Shown: piece by piece, positions 1 through 8,010 of the stretch | Layout of the letters: the number at the start of each line of letters is the position of its first letter | Position numbering within the stretch: position 1 is the first letter of the stretch | Sequence record: NC_048748.1 | Source: Escherichia phage vB_EcoS_HdH2 | DNA: 64,000 nt | Reading direction: 5' to 3' (one strand) | Made by a program: the position numbers and the translations under genes | Notes under the pieces: model-generated | The model's database searches: none | Told to the model about the DNA's origin: nothing | What the model saw: the letters and a program-made list of their open reading frames with translations, nothing else

Positions 1-49
1 CGACCCGAAGCATCCAAGGCTCCCACGCTACCAACTGCGCTACGCACTG
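1..49 (-). tRNA. tRNA-Pro (anticodon UGG), 5' portion only, truncated by window edge
   Basis: Reverse complement gives acceptor CAGTGCG, D-arm GCGC-AGTTGGTA-GCGT, anticodon stem-loop GGAGC-CTTGGAT-GCTTC (U33, UGG, A37); T-arm and 3' end lie beyond position 1. Confidence 0.45.
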
Positions 50-70
50 TTAATTTTTGTTAACTCACTT

Positions 71-120
71 TATAAAATATATTATACAGATAATTAAGCA
101 TAATAGCAAATGAATTTTTA
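71..120 (-). promoter_or_regulatory. T5-type early sigma70 promoter (AT-rich upstream, -35 TTTGCT, extended -10 TGTATAAT)
   Basis: Member of a conserved motif family seen about 17 times in the window; reverse complement carries -35 and TGTATAAT followed by a TATAAA-type downstream box. Confidence 0.55.
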
Positions 121-257
121 ATAAATTTACTTATTGTGTAGGCCACCTGGAGGCTACCAACCCCACGGCTGACAAAGAAGTTTGCGAGACTTCTCTTAAA
201 AGCCAGAATAGACCCGCCGATCTATCGGAACCTACATAATAAGTAAACTTTATAGTG

Positions 258-379
258 TCATTCTAGACAGGATTCGAACCTGTTATCCCTTGTGCGGACT
301 TACGAGAACCCTTCTTTCACTCGAATCGAACGAGCTTCTGCCCTCGCCAAGTTGGTTTCCCCATCAACCACGCTAGAAT
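258..379 (-). tRNA. tRNA-like element with about 50-nt internal insertion (atypical or degenerate tRNA)
   Basis: Perfect 7-bp acceptor pairing ATTCTAG/CTAGAAT, D-arm TGGT-loop-ACCA, canonical T-arm ACAGG-TTCGAAT-CCTGT next to the 3' acceptor strand; the two halves are about 120 nt apart; no encoded CCA. Confidence 0.3.
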
Positions 380-501
380 GTTTGGTTGTTTTCAGTGCAA
401 GAGTCCGAGTCTTGGACACGACCGCTTCGCAAGTACATAGGCAGCTTATCATGAGTCAGCACTTCCGAATTGCTAGCTCCGTGTTCTGCACTGAAATTTT
501 A

Positions 502-849
502 TTAGTTTAACCGTAAAGTATTATCTACTTCAACATTAATTGTTCGGCATTCCTCTGGGATTGCTGGGGTGGCCTTGTATTCCCACCACTCAGCACCGTC
601 ATACTCCCCACGTTCTAGCCAAGTTCCATCGGCAAACCATACATTACCATAAAGTAATTGTCCACCGTATCCAGAATCATATTCAAAGTCTAGGTTATTA
701 AGAAAATCCTCAATATCTTCTTCTGTATAGCCTAAAGGTAGTACCCAAATTTTTTTATCCCCATAATACCCGAATTCTATTTTAATACACTTAACTTTAG
801 AATTGGTATTTTTTAAGGCGAGTAACAGCTCTTCTTTAGCATTACGCAT
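502..849 (-). CDS. hypothetical protein (115 aa)
   Basis: ORF immediately downstream of tRNA-Asp in the same transcription direction; no recognisable motif. Confidence 0.5.
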   Translation of the reverse strand: MRNAKEELLLALKNTNSKVKCIKIEFGYYGDKKIWVLPLGYTEEDIEDFLNNLDFEYDSGYGGQLLYGNVWFADGTWLERGEYDGAEWWEYKATPAIPEECRTINVEVDNTLRLN

Positions 850-874
850 AGTATATTCTCATACTGAATTAATT

Positions 875-951
875 TGGCGCGACCGATGGGATTTGAACCC
901 ACATTCCCTCCCGTGACAGGGGAGTACCATTACCAAGCCAGCCCCGGTCGC
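875..951 (-). tRNA. tRNA-Asp (anticodon GUC)
   Basis: Reverse complement GCGACCG...CGGTCGC-G-CCA; anticodon loop CTGTCAC; T-loop GGTTCAAATCC; CCA encoded. Confidence 0.75.
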
Positions 952-960
952 ATAATTTAT

Positions 961-1146
961 TTACTCAGCTTTGAGTTTTTCAATAGCTGCATTAAGTTCT
1001 TTAAGAAACTCTTTTCGTACATTAAGACGATTGAGACTTACTAGTATATCATGTTTAAGTTCTTCGATGTATTTCTTCTCAACTTCAATATTGTTGATAG
1101 TGCTATCACGATGAACTTCTAGCTGCGCAATCACATTCTTGGACAT
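961..1146 (-). CDS. hypothetical protein (61 aa, coiled-coil-like)
   Basis: ORF between two tRNA genes; charged helical composition. Confidence 0.4.
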   Translation of the reverse strand: MSKNVIAQLEVHRDSTINNIEVEKKYIEELKHDILVSLNRLNVRKEFLKELNAAIEKLKAE

Positions 1147-1248
1147 GCTTGTTTCCTCAGTTATTAATGAAAATGGTATCTGTGGCTGAATTCGATGTCA
1201 GCAATGATAGCTGGTTGGCTACCGGTTTACTTAACTCTACACAGAATT

Positions 1249-1331
1249 TGGCGGGCCGTGTAGGATTCGAACCTACGTTGTCTTTCGACATGGATTAACA
1301 GTCCACCGCCAAACCGCTTGGCTAACGACCC
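1249..1331 (-). tRNA. tRNA with Asn anticodon GUU but a 13-nt variable arm
   Basis: Acceptor GGGTCGT/ACGGCCC, anticodon stem GTGGA/TCCAT with loop CTGTTAA, variable arm GTC-GAAA-GAC, T-arm GTAGG-TTCGAAT-CCTAC, G-CCA 3' end. Confidence 0.6.
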
Positions 1332-1483
1332 TAAATTTATATTGCTGACTAGGATTTTCACCTAGACGGAGTTAGCACCGTAGCGTGTAGCGGCATACCT
1401 CTCCAAACCGTGCCTCATCTTTCAATTACGGAGACAGTGTTCCTACGCGTGCCTGAATTGATTTAACAATTCTTTCAGCAAAT

Positions 1484-1559
1484 TGGACGACCGCATGAGA
1501 TTTGAACTCACATAAAAAGGATTTGCAATCCTTCGCCTAAGCCATTCAGCCAACGGTCG
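1484..1559 (-). tRNA. tRNA-Cys (anticodon GCA)
   Basis: Acceptor CGACCGT/GCGGTCG, anticodon loop TTGCAAA, T-loop GTTCAAATC, T-CCA end. Confidence 0.7.
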
Positions 1560-1595
1560 GTTTATCTTGTTCTGTTATGTTGCTTCTCCAGTTCA

Positions 1596-1650
1596 ATTTA
1601 TGTAATTATTATACAGAACTTTCGGAAACTAAGCAACTACATTTTTTAAG
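1596..1650 (-). promoter_or_regulatory. T5-type early promoter upstream of tRNA-Cys
   Basis: Reverse complement has TTGCTT -35 and TGTATAATAAT extended -10 followed by CATAAATTG box. Confidence 0.55.
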
Positions 1651-1901
1651 AATTTGATGCCTTTCTTTTTCTTCTTATATTTCCACGTTAATGGATTCTG
1701 TCGATTATGAACGCTTGAGATCTTCGTCTCGTCAAAGTTCTTCAATATCATGTAATCACAAGATAATTGTTCTAGTGGAATGTGATCACCGTCAAAAGCA
1801 TATACATAAGGCTGTTGACTAGCACGATAATGATAGACTTTATTAATTCTACGTTTCAGCGACTTATCCGCGCAGTAAATAAAGAAGTTTTCAGGATGCA
1901 T
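1629..1901 (-). CDS. hypothetical protein (90 aa)
   Basis: ORF in early-region orientation; no recognisable domain. Confidence 0.45.
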   Translation of the reverse strand: MHPENFFIYCADKSLKRRINKVYHYRASQQPYVYAFDGDHIPLEQLSCDYMILKNFDETKISSVHNRQNPLTWKYKKKKKGIKFLKNVVA

Positions 1902-1918
1902 CAGCAGCTCCTTTAATT

Positions 1919-1993
1919 TGGTGCACCCTGTTCGTATCGAACGAACCTCTCAAGCTCTTCAGGCAAGCGCTAATCCATCTCAGCTAAAGGTGC
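1919..1993 (-). tRNA. tRNA-Phe-like (anticodon GAA) with two U-U mismatches in the anticodon stem
   Basis: Acceptor GCACCTT/AGGGTGC, D-stem GCTG/TAGC, anticodon loop CTGAAGA, T-arm GTTCG-TTCGATA-CGAAC, A-CCA end; not in the ORF track. Confidence 0.55.
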
Positions 1994-1998
1994 AAATT

Positions 1999-2078
1999 TT
2001 GGCAAACCTACTAGGACTCGAACCTAGACCGTACGGTTTTGGAGACCGACATGCTGTCCAGTAACACTCTAGGAATGC
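1999..2078 (-). tRNA. tRNA-like (possible Trp, anticodon CCA) with non-canonical acceptor stem
   Basis: Canonical T-arm CTAGG-TTCGAGT-CCTAG and G-CCA end, candidate anticodon loop CTCCAAA, but no clean 7-bp acceptor pairing could be drawn. Confidence 0.3.
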
Positions 2079-2084
2079 AGAAAT

Positions 2085-2161
2085 TGGCGTCCTGTGCGGG
2101 GATCGAACCCGCAAATCCTACCTTGAAAGGGTAGTGACTTTACCAGTTTGTCTAACAGGAC
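2085..2161 (-). tRNA. tRNA-Glu (anticodon UUC)
   Basis: Acceptor GTCCTGT/ACAGGAC, anticodon stem-loop CTACC-CTTTCAA-GGTAG, T-loop GGTTCGATCC, G-CCA end. Confidence 0.75.
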
Positions 2162-2168
2162 TTAAATT

Positions 2169-2259
2169 TGGTGTTGGATGATGGAGTCGAACCACCCGAG
2201 ACCCTTCCGAGTCGGCAGATTTACAGTCTGCTTCGCTACCTCTACGATACTAATCCAAC
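2169..2259 (-). tRNA. tRNA-Tyr (anticodon GUA), type II with long variable arm
   Basis: Acceptor GTTGGAT/ATCCAAC, anticodon stem-loop GCAGA-CTGTAAA-TCTGC, long variable arm, T-loop GGTTCGACTCC, A-CCA end. Confidence 0.7.
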
Positions 2260-2314
2260 ATATTTAAAAGTATTCAAATACTAGTTTAAACACTTTTAAA
2301 TATGTTTCCGAATT

Positions 2315-2360
2315 AGATAACTATTATACCAAGTTTTAAGGCACTGAGCAAGTCAAATTT
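2315..2360 (-). promoter_or_regulatory. early promoter upstream of tRNA-Tyr, overlapping a 12-bp-stem hairpin
   Basis: Reverse complement has TTGACTTGCT -35 and TGGTATAATAG -10; inverted repeat GCACTGAGCAAG...CTTGCTCAGTGC at about 2341-2380 just after the stop of the 2388-2663 gene. Confidence 0.5.
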
Positions 2361-2387
2361 TAAAGAACTTGCTCAGTGCTGTATTAG

Positions 2388-2663
2388 TTAGTCGAACTTA
2401 GGAGTGACAGTTAAGGAGAACGGAAGTTCGAAAACTTCTTCGCCCTCATTACTAACGGTAACTACACGACCTTTAAGTTCAGACATTAAAATATCAATAT
2501 CAGCTTTTGCATCTGGAGCCATGCCAGCTTCAATACATTTAGCTTTAACTTCCGGTAAAAGCTCTACGTTATAGAGATAGAGCCACTCAATCTCACCTTC
2601 CCAGTCTTCCCAGGATTTGCAGATTGCACTTTCAATACCAGTTGCTACAACACGATTTTGCAT
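2388..2663 (-). CDS. hypothetical protein (91 aa)
   Basis: ORF with GAAGGAG RBS and upstream early promoter (2684-2730). Confidence 0.55.
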   Translation of the reverse strand: MQNRVVATGIESAICKSWEDWEGEIEWLYLYNVELLPEVKAKCIEAGMAPDAKADIDILMSELKGRVVTVSNEGEEVFELPFSLTVTPKFD

Positions 2664-2753
2664 TCGTTAACTCCTTCATCAATTTATACAACTATTATAT
2701 CAGAAATTTAAAGCAAAAGGCAAGTACATTTTTAAAAATTCTGTTTGGAGGAG

Positions 2754-2960
2754 CTAAACTCCAGATTCTTCAGCTAAGTCTAGACTAATAAGAGTTATAG
2801 CCATAATTGCTGCACCGTGTTCTTTTTCTCCGGTGTTTTTAGCAGAGTCTATAATATCCTTAATCTGTTCGTAATAACTTTTTACTTCTTGTTCAATGCC
2901 TGCCTCGGCTATCATGCCTTTAGCCATGAATCGTTGCATGGTAATTTCAGGATTAGCCAT
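2754..2960 (-). CDS. hypothetical protein (68 aa)
   Basis: ORF in operon orientation; start overlaps the stop of an upstream small ORF (ATGGCTAA). Confidence 0.45.
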   Translation of the reverse strand: MANPEITMQRFMAKGMIAEAGIEQEVKSYYEQIKDIIDSAKNTGEKEHGAAIMAITLISLDLAEESGV

Positions 2961-3120
2961 GTTGTTTCTCCAGTTTCATTTTTAATAGTTTACAGAGGAA
3001 ATCAACGTCTTCATCTGTGCCTAAGTCTCTATCCTCAAGGGTCGCCTTGAAGTTTTTCGTCAATTCCATGAGGATGACTTCCCTAGAACGACGTGTTAGC
3101 GGAGGTGGATGTCTATACAT
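2957..3120 (-). CDS. small hypothetical protein (about 54 aa), below the ORF-track threshold
   Basis: ATG at about 3118-3120 just downstream of the tRNA at 3136-3212; stop overlaps the next start. Confidence 0.35.
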
Positions 3121-3135
3121 CTTATTTCCTTAATT

Positions 3136-3212
3136 TGGTAGGGGTGGTGGGATTCGAACCCACAAAACCTGAATTTTAAGTCCAGTACCTATGCCAATTC
3201 GATTACACCCCC
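3136..3212 (-). tRNA. tRNA with anticodon UAA (Leu by anticodon) but a short 5-nt variable arm
   Basis: Acceptor GGGGGTG/CACCCCT, anticodon stem-loop CTGGA-CTTAAAA-TTCAG, T-arm GTGGG-TTCGAAT-CCCAC, A-CCA end. Confidence 0.55.
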
Positions 3213-3428
3213 GTGTAATTTAGTCAATTACTTTTGAAGCTTCAAGGTAGTCGATATAGTGTACGTTTTCTACCGTAATCATATAATCTGCCACTTTATC
3301 CATAGCTTGGGCTTCAGAGGTAGCTCTGGCTAACCTATATCCTTTTTTATATTCATCAGGGTATTCTCTATCTTGAATAAACACAACATAAACTATGTAT
3401 AATTCCACTTGTAATCCCCTAATTAAGT

Positions 3429-3506
3429 TGGTGGCTCCCCGAGGATTCGAACCTACGTACCTTCCGGTTATGAGCCGGGTGCTCATACCATATGAGCTTG
3501 AGAACC
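3429..3506 (-). tRNA. tRNA-Met/Ile-like (anticodon CAU) with imperfect T-stem
   Basis: Acceptor GGTTCTC/GGGAGCC, D-stem GCTC/GAGC, anticodon loop CTCATAA, T-loop TTCGAAT with two mismatches at the base of the T-stem, A-CCA end. Confidence 0.45.
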
Positions 3507-3512
3507 AGAATT

Positions 3513-3601
3513 TGGCGGAAGAAGTGGGAATCGAACCCACAAGGCTATATTTCAAACCGACAGATTAGCAATCTGCTGCAATACCGTTATGCTATTCTTC
3601 C
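3513..3601 (-). tRNA. tRNA-Ser (anticodon GCU), type II
   Basis: Acceptor GGAAGAA/TTCTTCC, anticodon stem-loop GCAGA-TTGCTAA-TCTGT, long variable arm, T-loop GGTTCGATTCC, G-CCA end; early promoter directly upstream (3603-3660). Confidence 0.7.
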
Positions 3602-3621
3602 GAATTTATAAATATATTATA

Positions 3622-4140
3622 TTAGAAATTTAACTTCATAGCAAGAAAATTTTTCAAGTTTTCGGTAGACATCTCATCCACATCTATAGGAGAAACAAAC
3701 CCATTTAATTGTCTAGCAAACTTTTCGCCAGCAGGATCATTATCCCCAACAGCTACCAATTTAAAAGGTAGTAATTTCAATTGCTTTAACAACGCTTTTC
3801 CGGGGGAAGAACCCAACATTGCTAGGGCAGGATAACCAGCGTTATGTAACGCAACTGCCTTAAATACAGATTCAGCAATCAATACTACTTTTTCATCTCC
3901 ATTGAGAGTTTCTAGTCCCCATACACACTGTGTAGTAGAATAAGTAAAATATTTAGCCTCAAAGGGACACTTACCATGACCTTTTGGAGCAGAAGGATTA
4001 TAAGTCTGATAGCCTCTCAACATCCCAGAGAAGTCATACAATGGGACTGTTAGCCAGCCTTCTGGGCTTAACCAGCAATGATATTTATCTGTATCAAACC
4101 CTCTAGATAAGAGATGTTCTGTTAGTTCATCAACAGTCAT
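3622..4140 (-). CDS. Toprim-domain protein (primase/topoisomerase-like fold)
   Basis: Acidic motif LIAESVFKAVAL ... VAVGDNDPAGEKFA typical of Toprim; start moved to the internal ATG (MTVDELTE) that sits behind RBS GAGAGG and the promoter at 4155-4205. Confidence 0.45.
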   Translation of the reverse strand: MTVDELTEHLLSRGFDTDKYHCWLSPEGWLTVPLYDFSGMLRGYQTYNPSAPKGHGKCPFEAKYFTYSTTQCVWGLETLNGDEKVVLIAESVFKAVALHNAGYPALAMLGSSPGKALLKQLKLLPFKLVAVGDNDPAGEKFARQLNGFVSPIDVDEMSTENLKNFLAMKLNF

Positions 4141-4313
4141 ATTAGATTCCTCTCTCAAATTTATAAATATATTATACAGAGAATTTAGCATTCAAGCAAT
4201 TGAATTTTTTAACTTTTTAGAGGAAAATCATAGGATGCTTAAGGGTAGCAGATAAGTGGTGAGTACCGAAATTTGTGACCCCACTAAAAATCTGGGGGCA
4301 ATTTTTAAAGACC

Positions 4314-4345
4314 CCTTGACATTTTCGCCGGGGTAGTGTAAAGTA
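4314..4345 (+). promoter_or_regulatory. consensus-like sigma70 promoter (TTGACA, 17-nt spacer, TAAAGT) driving the plus-strand cassette
   Basis: -35 TTGACA at 4316-4321 and -10 TAAAGT at 4339-4344; shares the 15-mer TTGACATTTTCGCCG with the promoter at 33382. Confidence 0.6.
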
Positions 4346-4406
4346 TATGTTATGGATGAGTGATCAAAGAGACACACATTTTCTATATACTAGGAGGTGT
4401 CAAAAA

Positions 4407-5396
4407 ATGACAGAAGAAGTAGCTAAGAGTCCTGAAACCGTCGCTAGCGTAGCAGCAGAACTGCATCGTCACGAGGAATCAGATAAGAAAAAGTGGGAGA
4501 AAGTCAAAGCCTACGAAGAAGAACATCGTGAACACGATGATAAAGATGAAGAAGATGACGATGATGAACATTGTCATAAATATGGAAAACATAAAATGCA
4601 AGAACCAGTAAACGTATTTACTAACGGCTTCCCTGGCATGGGTGCATTCCCAGCTAACGCAAGTGCTTTCGGTGGAGAAGGTATGGGCCTATTCGGAGCT
4701 ATCCTAATCGGTGCTCTATTAACAGGCGGATTTGGTGGTTTCGGTGGATTCGGTGGACGTGGTGTAGTTAGTGATGGTACCGCAGTTGATGCAGTACTTC
4801 AGAACCAAGATACCGCTAGTATTCTAGCAGCTATTAACACTACTCGTACAGAAGCTAATCAGGGTACTGGAGCTGTTTTAAGCGCAGTTAACAATGGTTT
4901 TAGCCAGACATCCCAAAACCAGAGCCGTGATACTCAGTCTGTACTAACTACGATCTATGGTACAGGTGCTAATCTGTCTAATCAGATCTGCCAGGAAACT
5001 CGCAACGTTATTCAGGGTCAGTTCGATCTTTCTCGCCAGATTGATCAATCTTTCGCAGCTAACCAGATAGCTCGTGCACAAGATAAGTTTGATTCTGCAC
5101 AGATCGCTTTCCAGCAGACTTTACAAACTAATAACCAGTTTGCCGCTGTTCAGGCTCAGATGTGTGCTAACCAGAACTCTCTGGAACGTCAGATCGCTGA
5201 ATGTTGCTGTGAACTTCAGACTGCGATCGCTGGTGTAACTACTGCGCGTATCCAGGATGAGTTAGACGCATGTCGCCTACGTGAAGCAATCGCTGCGGGT
5301 AGCGGTGCTAACGGTCAGGTAATTAATCAAATCGCTTTAAGTCTTGGTGCTATCACTCAGACTCTGGCTGGTCTGCAGGCTAAACTGCCGGCTTAA
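4407..5396 (+). CDS. hypothetical membrane-anchored protein: acidic His-rich N-terminus, Gly-rich TM helix, Q/N-rich C-terminal domain with CCC motif
   Basis: ORF with AGGAGGTG RBS before ATG 4407; hydrophobic segment GLFGAILIGALLTGGFGGFGGFGG; codon usage resembles highly expressed genes; opposite strand to its neighbours. Confidence 0.55.
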   Translation: MTEEVAKSPETVASVAAELHRHEESDKKKWEKVKAYEEEHREHDDKDEEDDDDEHCHKYGKHKMQEPVNVFTNGFPGMGAFPANASAFGGEGMGLFGAILIGALLTGGFGGFGGFGGRGVVSDGTAVDAVLQNQDTASILAAINTTRTEANQGTGAVLSAVNNGFSQTSQNQSRDTQSVLTTIYGTGANLSNQICQETRNVIQGQFDLSRQIDQSFAANQIARAQDKFDSAQIAFQQTLQTNNQFAAVQAQMCANQNSLERQIAECCCELQTAIAGVTTARIQDELDACRLREAIAAGSGANGQVINQIALSLGAITQTLAGLQAKLPA

Positions 5397-5417
5397 TATT
5401 AAGGGGAGGAGCCCATT

Positions 5418-5837
5418 ATGAGTAAATATGGTTTTGTAAATAACGGACTTAATCAAAGTATGGGCTCCCAGCAGCCCATTCCGGGTCTGGATAATCCCTA
5501 CTTACAACAGTTGCAACAGCGTTTAGCAGAAGCGCAACAGATGCAGCAACAACTCCAGCAAAACCCTGGAAGTGTGAGTCCTATGCAAATGATGCAGCAA
5601 ATGAGTGGGCAGTCGCAAATGCCTCAACAAATGCAGCAACAGATGCCGCAGCAGCAGCAAGTTCAGCAACAAACCCATCAACCGCAGGTTTCTGCGGAAG
5701 GACAGGCAGTACTAGCCCTTTTCGAAGACTTCGCAAAGACAGAGGATGGGAAGCAGCTTGTATCACTTATGGGTAAGTTTAATAGCTTCTGCCAAAGCCA
5801 AATTGCAAAAGCTCAAAATAGCGGTGATAACTCCTAA
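5418..5837 (+). CDS. hypothetical glutamine-rich low-complexity protein (139 aa)
   Basis: ORF with GGGGAGGAG RBS; extremely Q-rich (QQMQQQLQQ, MPQQMQQQMPQQQQVQQQ). Confidence 0.5.
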   Translation: MSKYGFVNNGLNQSMGSQQPIPGLDNPYLQQLQQRLAEAQQMQQQLQQNPGSVSPMQMMQQMSGQSQMPQQMQQQMPQQQQVQQQTHQPQVSAEGQAVLALFEDFAKTEDGKQLVSLMGKFNSFCQSQIAKAQNSGDNS

Positions 5838-5846
5838 GGAGGAATT

Positions 5847-6041
5847 ATGTGTTGCAGAAAATCTGTTTCGTGCTGCCCAATGCCTGTAGCACGTTGTTGC
5901 TCTCCAGCAATGTTTACGCAAATACCGGCGTTCAATCCGTTTGCCTTTAAGCCTACTCTTATCCTGCCCCCTAGAGTAGATTTTCAGTCAAGATTGGCCT
6001 CCCGTATGGGTGGTTGCTGTAACAAGAGTATATGGTTCTAA
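5847..6041 (+). CDS. hypothetical Cys-rich small protein (64 aa) with four CC doublets
   Basis: ORF with AGGAGG RBS directly after the previous gene; CC at residues 2-3, 9-10, 17-18 and 57-58; followed by terminators. Confidence 0.4.
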   Translation: MCCRKSVSCCPMPVARCCSPAMFTQIPAFNPFAFKPTLILPPRVDFQSRLASRMGGCCNKSIWF

Positions 6042-6056
6042 AGAACCAAACAATAA

Positions 6057-6090
6057 AGCCCCTAGTCGAAAGACTTAGGGGCTTTTTCTT
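6057..6090 (+). terminator. rho-independent terminator ending the plus-strand cassette
   Basis: Hairpin AGCCCCTAGTC-GAAA-GACTTAGGGGCT followed by TTTTT. Confidence 0.65.
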
Positions 6091-6107
6091 TTGCCTTAAA
6101 ATACAGA

Positions 6108-6140
6108 AAAGCCCGCGCTCTCGGAGAAAACGCGGGCTTA
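6108..6140 (-). terminator. rho-independent terminator after the SPFH gene (hairpin shared with the plus-strand cassette end)
   Basis: Inverted repeat AAGCCCGCG...CGCGGGCTT; on the minus strand it is followed by TTTTCTGTATTTT. Confidence 0.55.
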
Positions 6141-6162
6141 GTTCGAAGATTACGTGTAACTA

Positions 6163-7110
6163 TTACTTGTTACGCATATCCATGATCATTTGACCATCAT
6201 AGCCAGTGCCAACTACAGTCTGAGGTACACCACCTTGATATTTCTGAGCACGAATCATCTCAACTTCCAGTTGTTTCCAACGAATCATCTCAGGAGTAAT
6301 GGTACGTTGTAGTGCGGCGTTAGCTTCAGCTTCTTTCTTAGCTGCGTACAGTTTAGCATCTGCGTCACGTTCATTAGCAATAGCTTGGTTATTGCGAGCT
6401 TCACGATCTGCTTCTGCTTGTTTAACTTTTTGCTGTGCTTCCTGTTCAACGCGGGCAAGTTCAGCTTTCGCAGCGTTAACTTGCTCTTCACGAACTTTGG
6501 TATTCTGTACCTGTTCCATGATTACCGGTGGCAAAGTAATATCCTGAAGAAACACCTGCTTAACTGTGTAACCATATGGGCGTGCATACTCTTCAACTTC
6601 CTGTTGAATTGCAGTTTGCAATTGAGCCTGAATTTTAGCATCAAACAAATCTTGTGCTTTAGGTACAGACTTACCAAACTCACGAATAGTAGACAGTAAT
6701 TTTTCAGTTACATATTTGTCTAACGCTTGATCCTGAGTACCTGCATTAATACGGTTAATCGGTGCCTTAGAACCATCAAACTGCAACATAACAGTCAGGT
6801 CAACAGTGGATTTAAACTTATCCTGACTAGGGACCTGAAGTTTATCTAATTTTAGAGCAATATCTTTAGTACTAAAAGTATCGAAAGAAGCAAAAGGATT
6901 TACAATATGAAAGCCGGGTAATACTGGGCTAGGGTCAACCTTACCCAGGAAGGTCTGGGTTTTAACAGTACCGTCTTGAACAACAGTGTAAGAGTTAAGA
7001 GCCAGAACTAAACCTACCAAACCAACTGCAGCCCCAATACCCCAACGTTTGATATTACGCATTAATTTTTGCTCATAAGTCAGTTCTTTAGTGTTTTTAG
7101 TAGCAAACAT
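6163..7110 (-). CDS. SPFH/band-7 family membrane protein (HflC/stomatin-like)
   Basis: N-terminal TM helix (IGAAVGLVGLVLAL), SPFH-like core (YTVVQDGTVKTQTFLGKV), charged Ala/Glu/Gln-rich coiled-coil tail; RBS AAAGGAAAT; directly downstream of tRNA-Arg. Confidence 0.6.
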   Translation of the reverse strand: MFATKNTKELTYEQKLMRNIKRWGIGAAVGLVGLVLALNSYTVVQDGTVKTQTFLGKVDPSPVLPGFHIVNPFASFDTFSTKDIALKLDKLQVPSQDKFKSTVDLTVMLQFDGSKAPINRINAGTQDQALDKYVTEKLLSTIREFGKSVPKAQDLFDAKIQAQLQTAIQQEVEEYARPYGYTVKQVFLQDITLPPVIMEQVQNTKVREEQVNAAKAELARVEQEAQQKVKQAEADREARNNQAIANERDADAKLYAAKKEAEANAALQRTITPEMIRWKQLEVEMIRAQKYQGGVPQTVVGTGYDGQMIMDMRNK

Positions 7111-7144
7111 ATATTTCCTTTATTTTAGTTACAGTTAATAAAAT

Positions 7145-7219
7145 TGGCCGAGGTGACAGGATTCGAACCTGCATAAAGGAATTTAGAAGACTCCTGCCTC
7201 TCCCTTAGACTACACCCCG
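7145..7219 (-). tRNA. tRNA-Arg (anticodon UCU)
   Basis: Acceptor CGGGGTG/CACCTCG, anticodon stem-loop GGAGT-CTTCTAA-ATTCC, T-arm GCAGG-TTCGAAT-CCTGT, G-CCA end. Confidence 0.7.
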
Positions 7220-7229
7220 TTTAAGTATT

Positions 7230-8010
7230 TTTAAGAACTCTCGTAAAAACTCTTAAAAATACAGACGATACCGGGAGAGTCATAAGTCTCACTCATTAAG
7301 TATTTCAAGACAAAATACGGTAACGTCTATTATTTTCCAGTTTAAGTCAGGGTGACTTAGTGGTTATGTCCTGCGGTATATTGAGGACTCGGTTAGGCTT
7401 GGGGTCATGACTTCCCACCTTTTGCTGCTACTCAACAGGAGTTATCGCGAATTACCTGTGCTATTGTGCACCATTAGTGACATCTCTCATGTCAGCATTT
7501 CCCACTTTGTGGATAGCTTGAAAAACTACTCCGATATGGAGAAAGAACTTCACTACCCTAGAATACCTTCTAAAGTTCTTCTTTAGCCTGGACATAGTTA
7601 AATCGTAATAAAACTATTCAGCAGACTGGTTGGTTAGTCTGGAACCAACTACCGCGTGGTTTAGGCAGTGCGCAACTAACCTCGGAAGCTTTTACGTTAA
7701 AAGCATCAGTTATCCAGTTCTTACCGACCGTAGGATTCGAACCTACATCTTCCACCAGTTACGGCTTGATAATACCAATTATACTAGGACGGCAGTGTTA
7801 CTACATAAGTGATTTCCACACCCCACTATTTATAAATTAGAGAAGAGTTTAGGGGAGAGGTTTCAGACGCCTCATTTTACACGTTCTAGCCACTAACCGG
7901 GATTGCCGCCCCCTGTGTACTAGTTTTACAACTAACCCACCGACTCTATTCAACGAATCTTAGTGCTCGACGCATCTTACATTAAGACAAGTTCAGCGTA
8001 ATCGGCTCGC
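7230..8010 (-). ncRNA. promoter-driven non-coding transcript region; candidate stable RNA(s), includes a tRNA-like 3' domain at about 7720-7795
   Basis: About 780 nt without a credible ORF, lying between the early promoter at 8020-8070 and tRNA-Arg; contains canonical T-arm GTAGG-TTCGAAT-CCTAC with acceptor-like GCCGTCC/GGTCGGT but no anticodon stem, plus several local hairpins. Confidence 0.3.

Follow-up and report, generated by a model that had tools for sequence, protein, structure and literature searches.

The transfer RNA (tRNA) gene region of T5-like phages, also called 'del-1', TRR or the tRNA-rich region, is a classic locus that is annotated in detail in the curated records of phage 5 (AJ604531) and T5 (NC_005859). 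In the tRNA cluster of phage T4, true tRNAs are co-transcribed with the stable RNAs species 1 and 2 (rnaC, rnaD) and are processed by host RNase P; T4 carries 8 tRNAs, and T5-like phages carry approximately 20-25 together with more tRNA-like RNAs. With rnaC and rnaD, the T4 cluster displays a like arrangement of tRNA-like RNAs of unknown function, the likeness being one of description, with no relation of sequence seen. This study analyzed the tRNA array within a 64,000-nucleotide (nt) stretch of Escherichia phage vB_EcoS_HdH2 (NC_048748.1; hereafter the window), for which tRNAs were called across positions 1-8000 with ARAGORN and with Rfam covariance models run through Infernal (gathering score of the tRNA model RF00005, 29 bits), and folds were computed with ViennaRNA. 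The interpretation preferred here, at a probability of roughly 0.8, is that the array is a T5-like tRNA region in which the oddly shaped tRNAs are working genes whose shapes are selected, and that two further RNAs (the annotated RNA2 and an unannotated stretch termed S2) are tRNA-like RNAs that do not decode.

A nucleotide search with window positions 1-8000 matched 608 phage records. Five members of Tequintavirus (Demerecviridae), namely Salmonella phage oldekolle, NBEco001, FFH_1, SP15 and Salmonella phage 5, match the entire stretch at 95-97% identity. Identity to phage 5 was 96.4% overall, and each RNA gene of phage 5 maps onto the window at 94-100% identity; on these matches, the region is identified as a T5-like tRNA gene region, an array that has long been known and is textbook material. 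The gene order is the same as in T5, BF23 (NC_042564) and phage 5, with which the window shares RNAIV, RNA2, RNA3, RNAX and the genes for tRNA-Asp, Asn, Cys, Phe, Trp, Glu, Tyr, Leu2, Ile2, Ser3 and Arg. In cassette content the window is nearer to phage 5 than to T5. The Asn allele of T5 is a different one, of class I, as is its 71-nt Trp, and in T5 the Leu2 site is occupied by the HNH endonuclease gene hegA and the S2 site by an open reading frame (ORF); the ORF trn2.10.1, which lies between RNA2 and RNAIV in phage 5, is missing from the window. All RNA genes of the array are on the minus strand, with transcription running from high to low coordinates in the order RNAX, Arg, protein-coding genes, Ser3, Ile2, Leu2, Tyr, Glu, Trp, Phe, Cys, spacer S2, Asn, RNA3, Asp, spacer S1, RNA2, RNAIV, promoter P13a and a truncated tRNA-Pro, and small ORFs are interspersed between several of these RNA genes.

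ARAGORN called ten tRNAs and no transfer-messenger RNA (tmRNA), and the Rfam models added a tRNA with a CAU anticodon at 3432-3506, a tRNA-like match at 7722-7793 and a partial tRNA-Pro; a CCA end is encoded by all 11 complete tRNAs. An initial annotation, drawn by hand from the letters of the window, had described the array as containing several non-canonical members, which it lettered (a) to (f), and ARAGORN, Rfam and the folds agree with that description. Small boundary differences in (d) and an ambiguous T-stem register in (f) are what might be expected if the irregularities were artefacts of hand alignment, yet ARAGORN, Infernal and ViennaRNA all reproduce them, leaving an artefact with hardly any probability. 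The array serves mainly as a check that reading a sequence by itself can spot non-canonical tRNAs correctly, with the qualification that RNA3, RNAIV, the tRNA-like element at 7722-7793 and the truncated tRNA-Pro had been missed.

The first of the odd members is a tRNA-Asn (element a), which scores 59.0 bits against the Rfam tRNA model (above the 29-bit gathering score) and has a 7-nt anticodon loop, discriminator G73 and an encoded CCA. Its variable region, GUCGAAAGACAAC, is 13 nt long, as first drawn, and both the Rfam alignment and the fold divide it into a 3-bp stem, a GAAA loop and three more nt. A variable region longer than 10 nt that forms a stem-loop is the structural mark of class II tRNAs, and the arm is the size of the bacterial tRNA-Tyr arm; unlike the class II tRNAs of bacteria (Leu, Ser, Tyr or Sec), however, this tRNA is marked as Asn by its GUU anticodon, G73 and Asn-type anticodon arm, and Asn is not a class II isotype in cells. 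Long-arm tRNA-Asn genes were also found in Tequintavirus and Novosibvirus (Demerecviridae), in Winklervirus, Karamvirus and Jiaodavirus (Straboviridae), and in Phapecoctavirus and Mydovirus, with some of these relatives also having a 3-bp D stem. Across seven phages from four groups the arm stem re-pairs as GUC/GAC, GUCA/UGAC, GUUC/GAAC and GAGC/GCUC, three of the four stem pairs showing changes on both sides, and GGACUGUUAAUCC, comprising the arm loop and three loop-proximal stem pairs, is invariant in the seven sequences.

The host tRNA-Asn sequence was checked in 5,425 E. coli genomes, and its anticodon stem-loop is identical to those of the phage genes of X20, CC31 and AV125 and one compensatory base-pair swap apart from that of the window. 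The tRNA-Asn of T5 itself is of class I and 78 nt long, and its anticodon stem is mismatched. In Demerecviridae, equivalent places are occupied by no fewer than four strongly differing tRNA-Asn alleles (T5, locus L002, 7953-8030; locus L074, 453-528; locus L051, 1423-1498; and the window), and the class-I alleles of other Demerecviridae have altered anticodon stem-loops, one of them with C33. A BLAST search of tRNA-Asn and of the tRNA-Leu2 described below against 5,426 E. coli genomes returned no close host counterpart, so that neither is a recent host capture; a 67-nt E. coli 'tRNA-Asn' match from this search is an aberrant copy and was set aside.

The tRNA-Leu2 gene (element b) scores 57.4 bits, has A73, and shows in the Rfam alignment a 5-nt variable loop, GUUUU, confirming the short type-I arm previously proposed for a tRNA with a UAA anticodon. 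Bacterial tRNA-Leu is expected to have a long variable arm, which is missing from Leu2 and from five further phage tRNA-Leu. Copies of Leu2 with an identity of 99% or more occur in 291 phage records. Many T5-like phages carry another type-I tRNA-Leu, which has a UAG anticodon, and more are found in Aeromonas phage Akh-2, Vibrio phage ValDsh2 and Mycobacterium phage I3. Among six phage type-I tRNA-Leu, the D-loop AAUUGGCAUA and A73 are invariant and 15 of the 20 pairs have undergone compensatory changes. The leucyl-tRNA synthetase (LeuRS) of E. coli requires A73, A15-U48, G18G19 and A20a and needs neither the anticodon nor the long arm (PMC9976931), and Leu2 keeps these determinants together with A14. 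According to a review of tRNA identity, the long arm of tRNA-Leu is kept everywhere but in animal mitochondria (PMC9976931); as only animal mitochondria are listed, the phage type-I family is an unlisted exception. Animal mitochondrial tRNA-Leu also has no long arm, and its recognition is expected to occur via A73, A14 and D-loop elements, whereas the phage Leu2 has full canonical D and T loops (G18G19, UUCGAAU). Judged from these comparisons, the long-arm Asn and the short-arm Leu are conserved families across several phage groups. No description of a long-arm tRNA-Asn or a short-arm phage tRNA-Leu was found in the open-access literature, a coverage outside which the older T5 tRNA papers lie.

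In three other members, the irregularity lies in the stems. The tRNA-Phe gene (element c; 42.4 bits) has the anticodon stem CUUGC/GCUUG, in which Infernal flags both U28·U42 and U29·U41 as non-standard, matching the two U-U mismatches noticed by eye. The tRNA-Phe of the Klebsiella myovirus BIS47 (Mydovirus) shares its whole anticodon arm with the window, both U·U pairs included; its acceptor stem (GCAGAGA/UCUCUGC) and its T stem (GAAGG/CCUUC) are fully re-paired. The phenylalanyl-tRNA synthetase (PheRS) has been studied with T5 tRNA-Phe as a substrate of unusual, Mg-dependent recognition (PMC9976931), which fits a loose anticodon stem. Element (d) had been described as a Trp-like element at 1999-2078 with no clean acceptor stem; the imperfect stem was borne out, with AUUCCUA/UAGGUUU pairing at five of seven positions around mismatched U2·U71 and U3·U70, but the boundaries are 2000-2076 and the element is a scorable tRNA-Trp (36.3 bits). 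It also has a mismatched U27·U43 in the anticodon stem and keeps the CCA anticodon, G73 and A1-U72. In the tRNA-Trp of locus L057, pairs 6-67 and 7-66 and the whole T stem are compensated and U2·U71 and U3·U70 are retained. On this comparison, the Phe and Trp mismatches are read as fixed features.

Element (f), called Met/Ile-like with a mispaired T-stem in the initial annotation, is the tRNA-Ile2(CAU) of the phage 5 and T5 records; ARAGORN misses it, and the Rfam match at 3432-3506 scores 40.3 bits. It contains C27·A43, and five contiguous T-stem pairs are impossible, the best model being C49-G65, G50-C64, one bulged base, A-U, G-C and G-C. G-C replaces C-G as the first T-stem pair in L023, L037 and BIS47, and BIS47 also has C in place of U as the bulged base; the variant in L024 fits an unbulged register equally well, and the stem is therefore graded as irregular and, under this model, probably bulged by a single base. 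None of the Phe, Trp and Ile2 genes thus has fully paired acceptor, anticodon and T stems, and the departures are conserved.

Mismatched stems raise the question of whether some of the odd members (Trp, Phe, Ile2 and element e, the RNA2 described below) are decaying, non-functional tRNA pseudogenes, as the initial annotation had allowed when it left the choice between functional oddities and pseudogenes. The mismatches do depress scores, as displayed by the 36.3 bits of Trp and by the failure of ARAGORN to find Ile2; Trp does not take a cloverleaf as its minimum-free-energy fold (z = +0.31); and the T5 record both lists one pseudo-tRNA at another place in the region and gives the derivatives of T5 Phe and Trp as not suppressing, which for Phe is expected because PheRS reads the anticodon. 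Conservation, expressed as the mean identity of each window element to its best match in Tequintavirus loci from IMG/VR, argues against decay: the odd tRNAs are at 99.3 (Asn), 99.8 (Trp), 99.9 (Leu2), 98.9 (Phe) and 98.0% (Ile2), the canonical Glu, Ser3 and Arg at 99.5, 99.5 and 99.7%, the flanking ORFs at only 88-97% and the promoter spacers at 95-96%. The relaxed constraint and uncompensated damage differing between relatives that mark a pseudogene are therefore missing from the odd tRNAs; instead, the same mismatches are kept in other genera while neighbouring pairs compensate, and the helices of RNA2 co-vary.

Database annotations point the same way. According to GenBank notes, amber suppressors are obtained when the anticodon is changed to CUA in Asn, Trp, Tyr or Leu2 of phage 5 or in Ile2 of T5, the Leu2 derivative being called an 'effective amber suppressor'. 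The window copies of Asn, Trp and Leu2 are 100% identical to their phage 5 counterparts, and that of Ile2 is 97% identical to its T5 counterpart. The reported suppression by the phage 5 Trp derivative thus concerns a gene identical to the one in the window. Asn, Leu2 and Trp have both an encoded CCA and, as read from their sequences, the cognate identity elements expected of a tRNA that can be aminoacylated; for Asn these are GUU and G73, which suffice to transplant Asn identity (PMC9976931). Combined, the conservation, the retained mismatches and the suppressor notes make decay highly improbable and indicate that the odd tRNAs are functional oddities, so that of the two options originally offered the first stands and the second does not.

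The remaining lettered member, element (e), had been drawn as a tRNA-like element whose perfect acceptor halves are 120 nt apart, implying an insertion of roughly 50 nt. The acceptor stem is indeed a perfect 7 bp (AUUCUAG/CUAGAAU, at 373-379 and 260-266), and the fold and helix count add D and T arms and display approximately 55 nt inserted at the site of the anticodon loop. This element is listed as RNA2, a tRNA-like stable RNA of unknown function (125 nt in the curated records), in the entries for T5, phage 5 and BF23, and homologues were found in Epseptimavirus, Yersinia phage phiR2-01 and Pectobacterium phage My1. Within the insert lies another T-arm-like hairpin, GCUCG-UUCGAUU-CGAGU, whose counterpart in My1 is UACGG-UUCAAUU-CCGUA. 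In a helix-by-helix count anchored over nine variants, five helices stay paired (acceptor, D stem, a 4-bp anticodon-like stem, inner hairpin and T stem), and three of them, the anticodon-like stem, the inner hairpin and the T stem, show compensatory changes; RNAalifold on a MAFFT alignment was discarded in favour of this count, the My1 and phiR2-01 rows being mis-registered. Additionally, the T4-like Acinetobacter phage Acj9 has a partial homologue of RNA2 (locus L049, 1001-1064), in which 64 nt match the inner domain and T arm at 81% identity; it lies under an annotated 'hypothetical protein' beside the Acj9 tRNA genes.

RNA2 has no 7-nt anticodon loop, no encoded CCA and no match to the Rfam tRNA model, and because the 11 tRNAs of the array all encode CCA, it is not read as a decoding tRNA with an intron; that part of the earlier proposal was dropped, and RNA2 is identified from its features as the known, stable, non-decoding tRNA-like RNA.

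The spacer at 1332-1483 had been suggested to hold further atypical tRNAs, and the fold and covariation place within it S2, a 140-nt stretch between tRNA-Cys and tRNA-Asn. The fold comprises a 7-bp acceptor stem (UUGCUGA/UCAGCAA), a D-like hairpin, a large core that is highly conserved and contains an inner hairpin, and a T-like hairpin (CUAGG-UGAAAAU-CCUAG) directly adjoining the 3' strand of the acceptor; there is no anticodon loop, no encoded CCA and no Rfam tRNA match. S2 is present in at least 218 phage records (Demerecviridae and Klebsiella Mydovirus), and among the 40 matches listed the stretch is unannotated or lies under a 'hypothetical protein', nor is it annotated in the curated record of phage 5. 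In the loci whose surroundings were checked it adjoins tRNA genes, and in the window, phiR2-01, Shiner and Mydovirus P8734 it starts 2-4 nt past the CCA of the preceding tRNA. With nine Demerecviridae sequences as its input, a covariance model (R1) detects the Mydovirus copies at 96-97 bits, and it returned no match in T5, BF23, My1, Proteus phage 1 or the T4-like loci examined.

In the S2 alignment, which was fitted to the model and spans three independent lineages only, 96.9% of cells pair, compared with 80.8% in shuffles and 24-47% with the partners slid, and 12 of the 23 pairs changed on both sides, values reached by 0 of 500 shuffles; a manual, model-free count gave the same picture. A MAFFT alignment with the Mydovirus rows was replaced by the covariance-model alignment on account of a misaligned 5' end. 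In an exact IMG/VR scan for the S2 core CCGCTACACGCTACGG, metagenomic hits on contigs other than T5-like or Mydovirus ones lay in unrelated sequence and were rejected as chance, there being no S2 architecture around them. On this evidence S2 is assigned as a conserved, covariation-supported tRNA-like RNA, non-decoding, with an expanded domain replacing the anticodon loop. BIS47, a myovirus of another subfamily (Mydovirus; loci L070 and L052), has recognisable homologues of the T5-like Phe, Ile2 and S2, which points to horizontal movement of single tRNA or tRNA-like genes between phage families.

The architecture of RNA2 and S2, with intact acceptor stem, D arm and T arm and 50-70 extra nt at the site of the anticodon loop, could also be taken as that of interrupted, intron-containing tRNA genes that are spliced into decoding tRNAs. 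No single contiguous removal rebuilds a 7-nt anticodon loop in either RNA, however, and the insert of RNA2 is itself conserved and structured, with its co-varying inner hairpin; CCA is not encoded, unlike in all true tRNAs of the array, curated records give RNA2 as a stable RNA of its full 125 nt, and no group I or other intron family was matched in Rfam. Permissive Rfam scans of 1-8000 and 100-1600 matched only tRNA and returned no family for RNAIV, RNA2, S1, RNA3 or S2, and the models for tmRNA, bacterial Y RNA, viral 3' tRNA-like structures and mascRNA had no match to RNA2, RNA3, S1, S2 or RNAIV at E<=10. Splicing is accordingly regarded as very improbable.

For the role of the region, the preferred reading envisages that strong early sigma-70 promoters drive polycistronic transcripts of tRNAs, small ORFs and tRNA-like RNAs, with a spacing of 2-7 nt in places, from which host RNase P and 3'-end nucleases would excise each unit with a stacked acceptor stem and T arm, as the architecture suggests. 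The Asn, Leu2, Phe, Trp and Ile2 tRNAs, in which the main identity elements are kept, would be charged by host synthetases. They may then both decode codons heavily used by the phage (UUA, AUA, AGA) and stand in for host tRNAs destroyed by tRNA-cleaving defence systems, the non-canonical shapes being kept by selection and not by decay. In 37 long window ORFs, UUA is the commonest Leu codon (26%), AUA makes up 17% of Ile and AGA 25% of Arg; these three codons are rare in E. coli. The odd shapes could make the phage tRNAs poor substrates for host tRNA-targeting nucleases with charging and decoding intact, and lowered recognition by such nucleases is most probably why the shapes are kept, this being the weakest step of the proposal. 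The likeliest roles of RNA2 and S2 would be as decoys for tRNA-binding enzymes or as punctuation for the processing or stability of the precursor.

Published work ties the same phage group and the same cluster to defence evasion: the Lys, Thr and Asn tRNAs of T5 counter PARIS (PMC12409363), and in T5-like phages tRNA-Tyr counters retron Eco7 and tRNA-Lys counters PrrC (PMC11555353). Asn is among the targets of the PARIS nuclease AriB; the published escape proceeds through anticodon stem-loop changes or overexpression, whereas the window Asn combines a host-type stem-loop with an extra arm. The papers on bacterial Schlafen and on retron Kva2 reported no link to type II tRNAs or phage Leu, and PMC10264068 makes no mention of T5 or variable arms. 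A bolder form of the proposal holds that T5-like and other large enterobacterial phages carry 'class-swapped' tRNAs (Asn having gained an arm on top of a host anticodon stem-loop, and Leu having lost one with all LeuRS determinants in place) to escape immune nucleases, with RNA2 and S2 serving as decoys or sponges for those tRNA-binding effectors and S2 constituting a new non-coding RNA family common to Demerecviridae and Klebsiella Mydoviruses; this is offered tentatively and is considered rather unlikely. The class-swapped Asn and Leu, the fixed Phe and Trp mismatches (candidate determinants of nuclease resistance or altered enzyme recognition) and S2 are side results of possible use to the field of phage tRNAs and anti-phage tRNases.

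A serious rival to selection on shape, though a doubtful one, is that the tRNAs are codon-usage supplements only and that their odd shapes are neutral historical accidents, put up with by permissive host enzymes and unrelated to defence evasion. The phage has 39.5% GC and makes heavy use of UUA, CUA, AUA and AGA, and the shapes may be invisible to charging because LeuRS ignores the long arm and the asparaginyl-tRNA synthetase relies on the anticodon and G73. Neutrality would predict drift, yet the Asn arm is compensated in four phage groups with different tRNA bodies and the U·U pairs are invariant where other stems vary; moreover, several radically different Asn alleles within one phage family form a pattern typical of an arms race, and T5-like tRNAs do counter PARIS, retron Eco7 and PrrC.

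Selection on working tRNAs nevertheless has several points weighing against it. To our knowledge, neither the presence nor the absence of an extra arm blocks any nuclease; escape by loop mutation is inapplicable to the long-arm Asn, which keeps the host-type anticodon stem-loop, and the PARIS rescue used the class-I Asn allele of T5 and not the long-arm allele found here. For this phage the evidence is its sequence, from which expression, ends and charging are inferred. The suppressor notes are database annotations that were not traced to a paper, and suppression by a CUA derivative leaves the inserted amino acid undefined. High identity among very close relatives partly reflects recent common descent and cassette exchange, and few independent lineages (three or four groups) stand behind the covariation counts. 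Finally, the tRNA region is dispensable in the laboratory and deletion-prone (PMC11555353), and as the whole can be deleted there, none of its genes is essential.

Table 1. Features of the tRNA array in window positions 1-8004; letters in brackets are those of the initial annotation.
Feature	Coordinates	Strand	Basis
tRNA-Pro(UGG), 3' part, clipped by window edge	1..49	-	partial Rfam tRNA; same place annotated in NBEco001
sigma-70 promoter, T5 early P13a, TTGCTA-17 nt-TATAAT	81..109	-	consensus scan 10/12; phage 5 and T5 records
RNAIV	135..237	-	mapped from AJ604531 and NC_005859; fold z = -2.85
RNA2 (e)	255..379	-	annotated rna2 in T5, phage 5 and BF23
spacer S1, unannotated	380..501	-	fold
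tRNA-Asp(GUC), canonical	875..951	-	ARAGORN, Rfam, phage 5 record
RNA3	1174..1246	-	mapped from phage 5 and T5 records
tRNA-Asn(GUU), 83 nt (a)	1249..1331	-	ARAGORN, Rfam, fold
S2, unannotated, predicted tRNA-like RNA	1342..1481	-	fold, covariance model
tRNA-Cys(GCA), canonical	1484..1559	-	ARAGORN, Rfam, phage 5 record
tRNA-Phe(GAA) (c)	1919..1993	-	ARAGORN, Rfam
tRNA-Trp(CCA) (d)	2000..2076	-	ARAGORN, Rfam
tRNA-Glu(UUC), canonical	2085..2161	-	ARAGORN, Rfam
tRNA-Tyr(GUA), class II, canonical	2169..2259	-	ARAGORN, Rfam, phage 5 record
promoter corresponding to P15c	2723-2694	-	consensus scan
tRNA-Leu2(UAA), 77 nt (b)	3136..3212	-	ARAGORN, Rfam
tRNA-Ile2(CAU) (f)	3429..3506	-	Rfam; annotated tRNAI2 in phage 5 and T5 records
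tRNA-Ser3(GCU), class II, canonical	3513..3601	-	ARAGORN, Rfam, phage 5 record
sigma-70 promoter P15b, upstream of Ser3 and Ile2	3616..3644	-	consensus scan 10/12; phage 5 and T5 records
tRNA-Arg(UCU)	7145..7219	-	ARAGORN, Rfam, phage 5 record
RNAX	7220..8004	-	mapped from phage 5 and T5 records

Several other RNAs of the array (Table 1) are structured or tRNA-like. Spacer S1, located between ORF trn2.10 and RNA2, has a predicted 10-bp closing stem, UUUCAGUGCA/UGCACUGAAA, around approximately 95 nt (z = -1.65); it was found in Tequintavirus loci only, at 97.5-99% identity, among relatives too alike to display covariation. RNA3 starts 2 nt after tRNA-Asn and is annotated as tRNA-like (fold z = -3.0). 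It lacks a D stem; its acceptor stem contains U1·U72, its hairpin has 6 bp and a loop of 6 nt, and its T-like arm has a loop of 8 nt; compensatory variants occur in L024 and L037, and the Rfam tRNA model does not match it. RNA3 encodes ACCA and therefore might be a substrate of CCA-end enzymes or synthetases. RNAIV is annotated as a stable RNA of unknown function and folds as a structured rod that is not tRNA-like. The 785-nt RNAX is likewise annotated as a stable RNA of unknown function and contains, on the minus strand, the tRNA-like element at 7722-7793, which scores 35.5 bits against the Rfam tRNA model, has neither a 7-nt anticodon loop nor CCA, and has a co-varying acceptor stem; the remainder of RNAX is 99% conserved.

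Comparison of loci L003-L037 with window positions 1-8000 displayed a mosaic presence and absence of tRNA and ORF cassettes among phages that are otherwise 95% identical, including alternative alleles of Tyr and Trp and the loss of the 5' half of S2 in L010. The pattern, as far as these alignments go, fits cassette exchange driven by homing endonucleases. Between the tRNA blocks, at 4347-5837 on the plus strand, two opposite-strand ORFs have an unusual low-complexity composition, one (349 amino acids) with an acidic and then a Gly-rich stretch and the other (139 amino acids) being Gln-rich.

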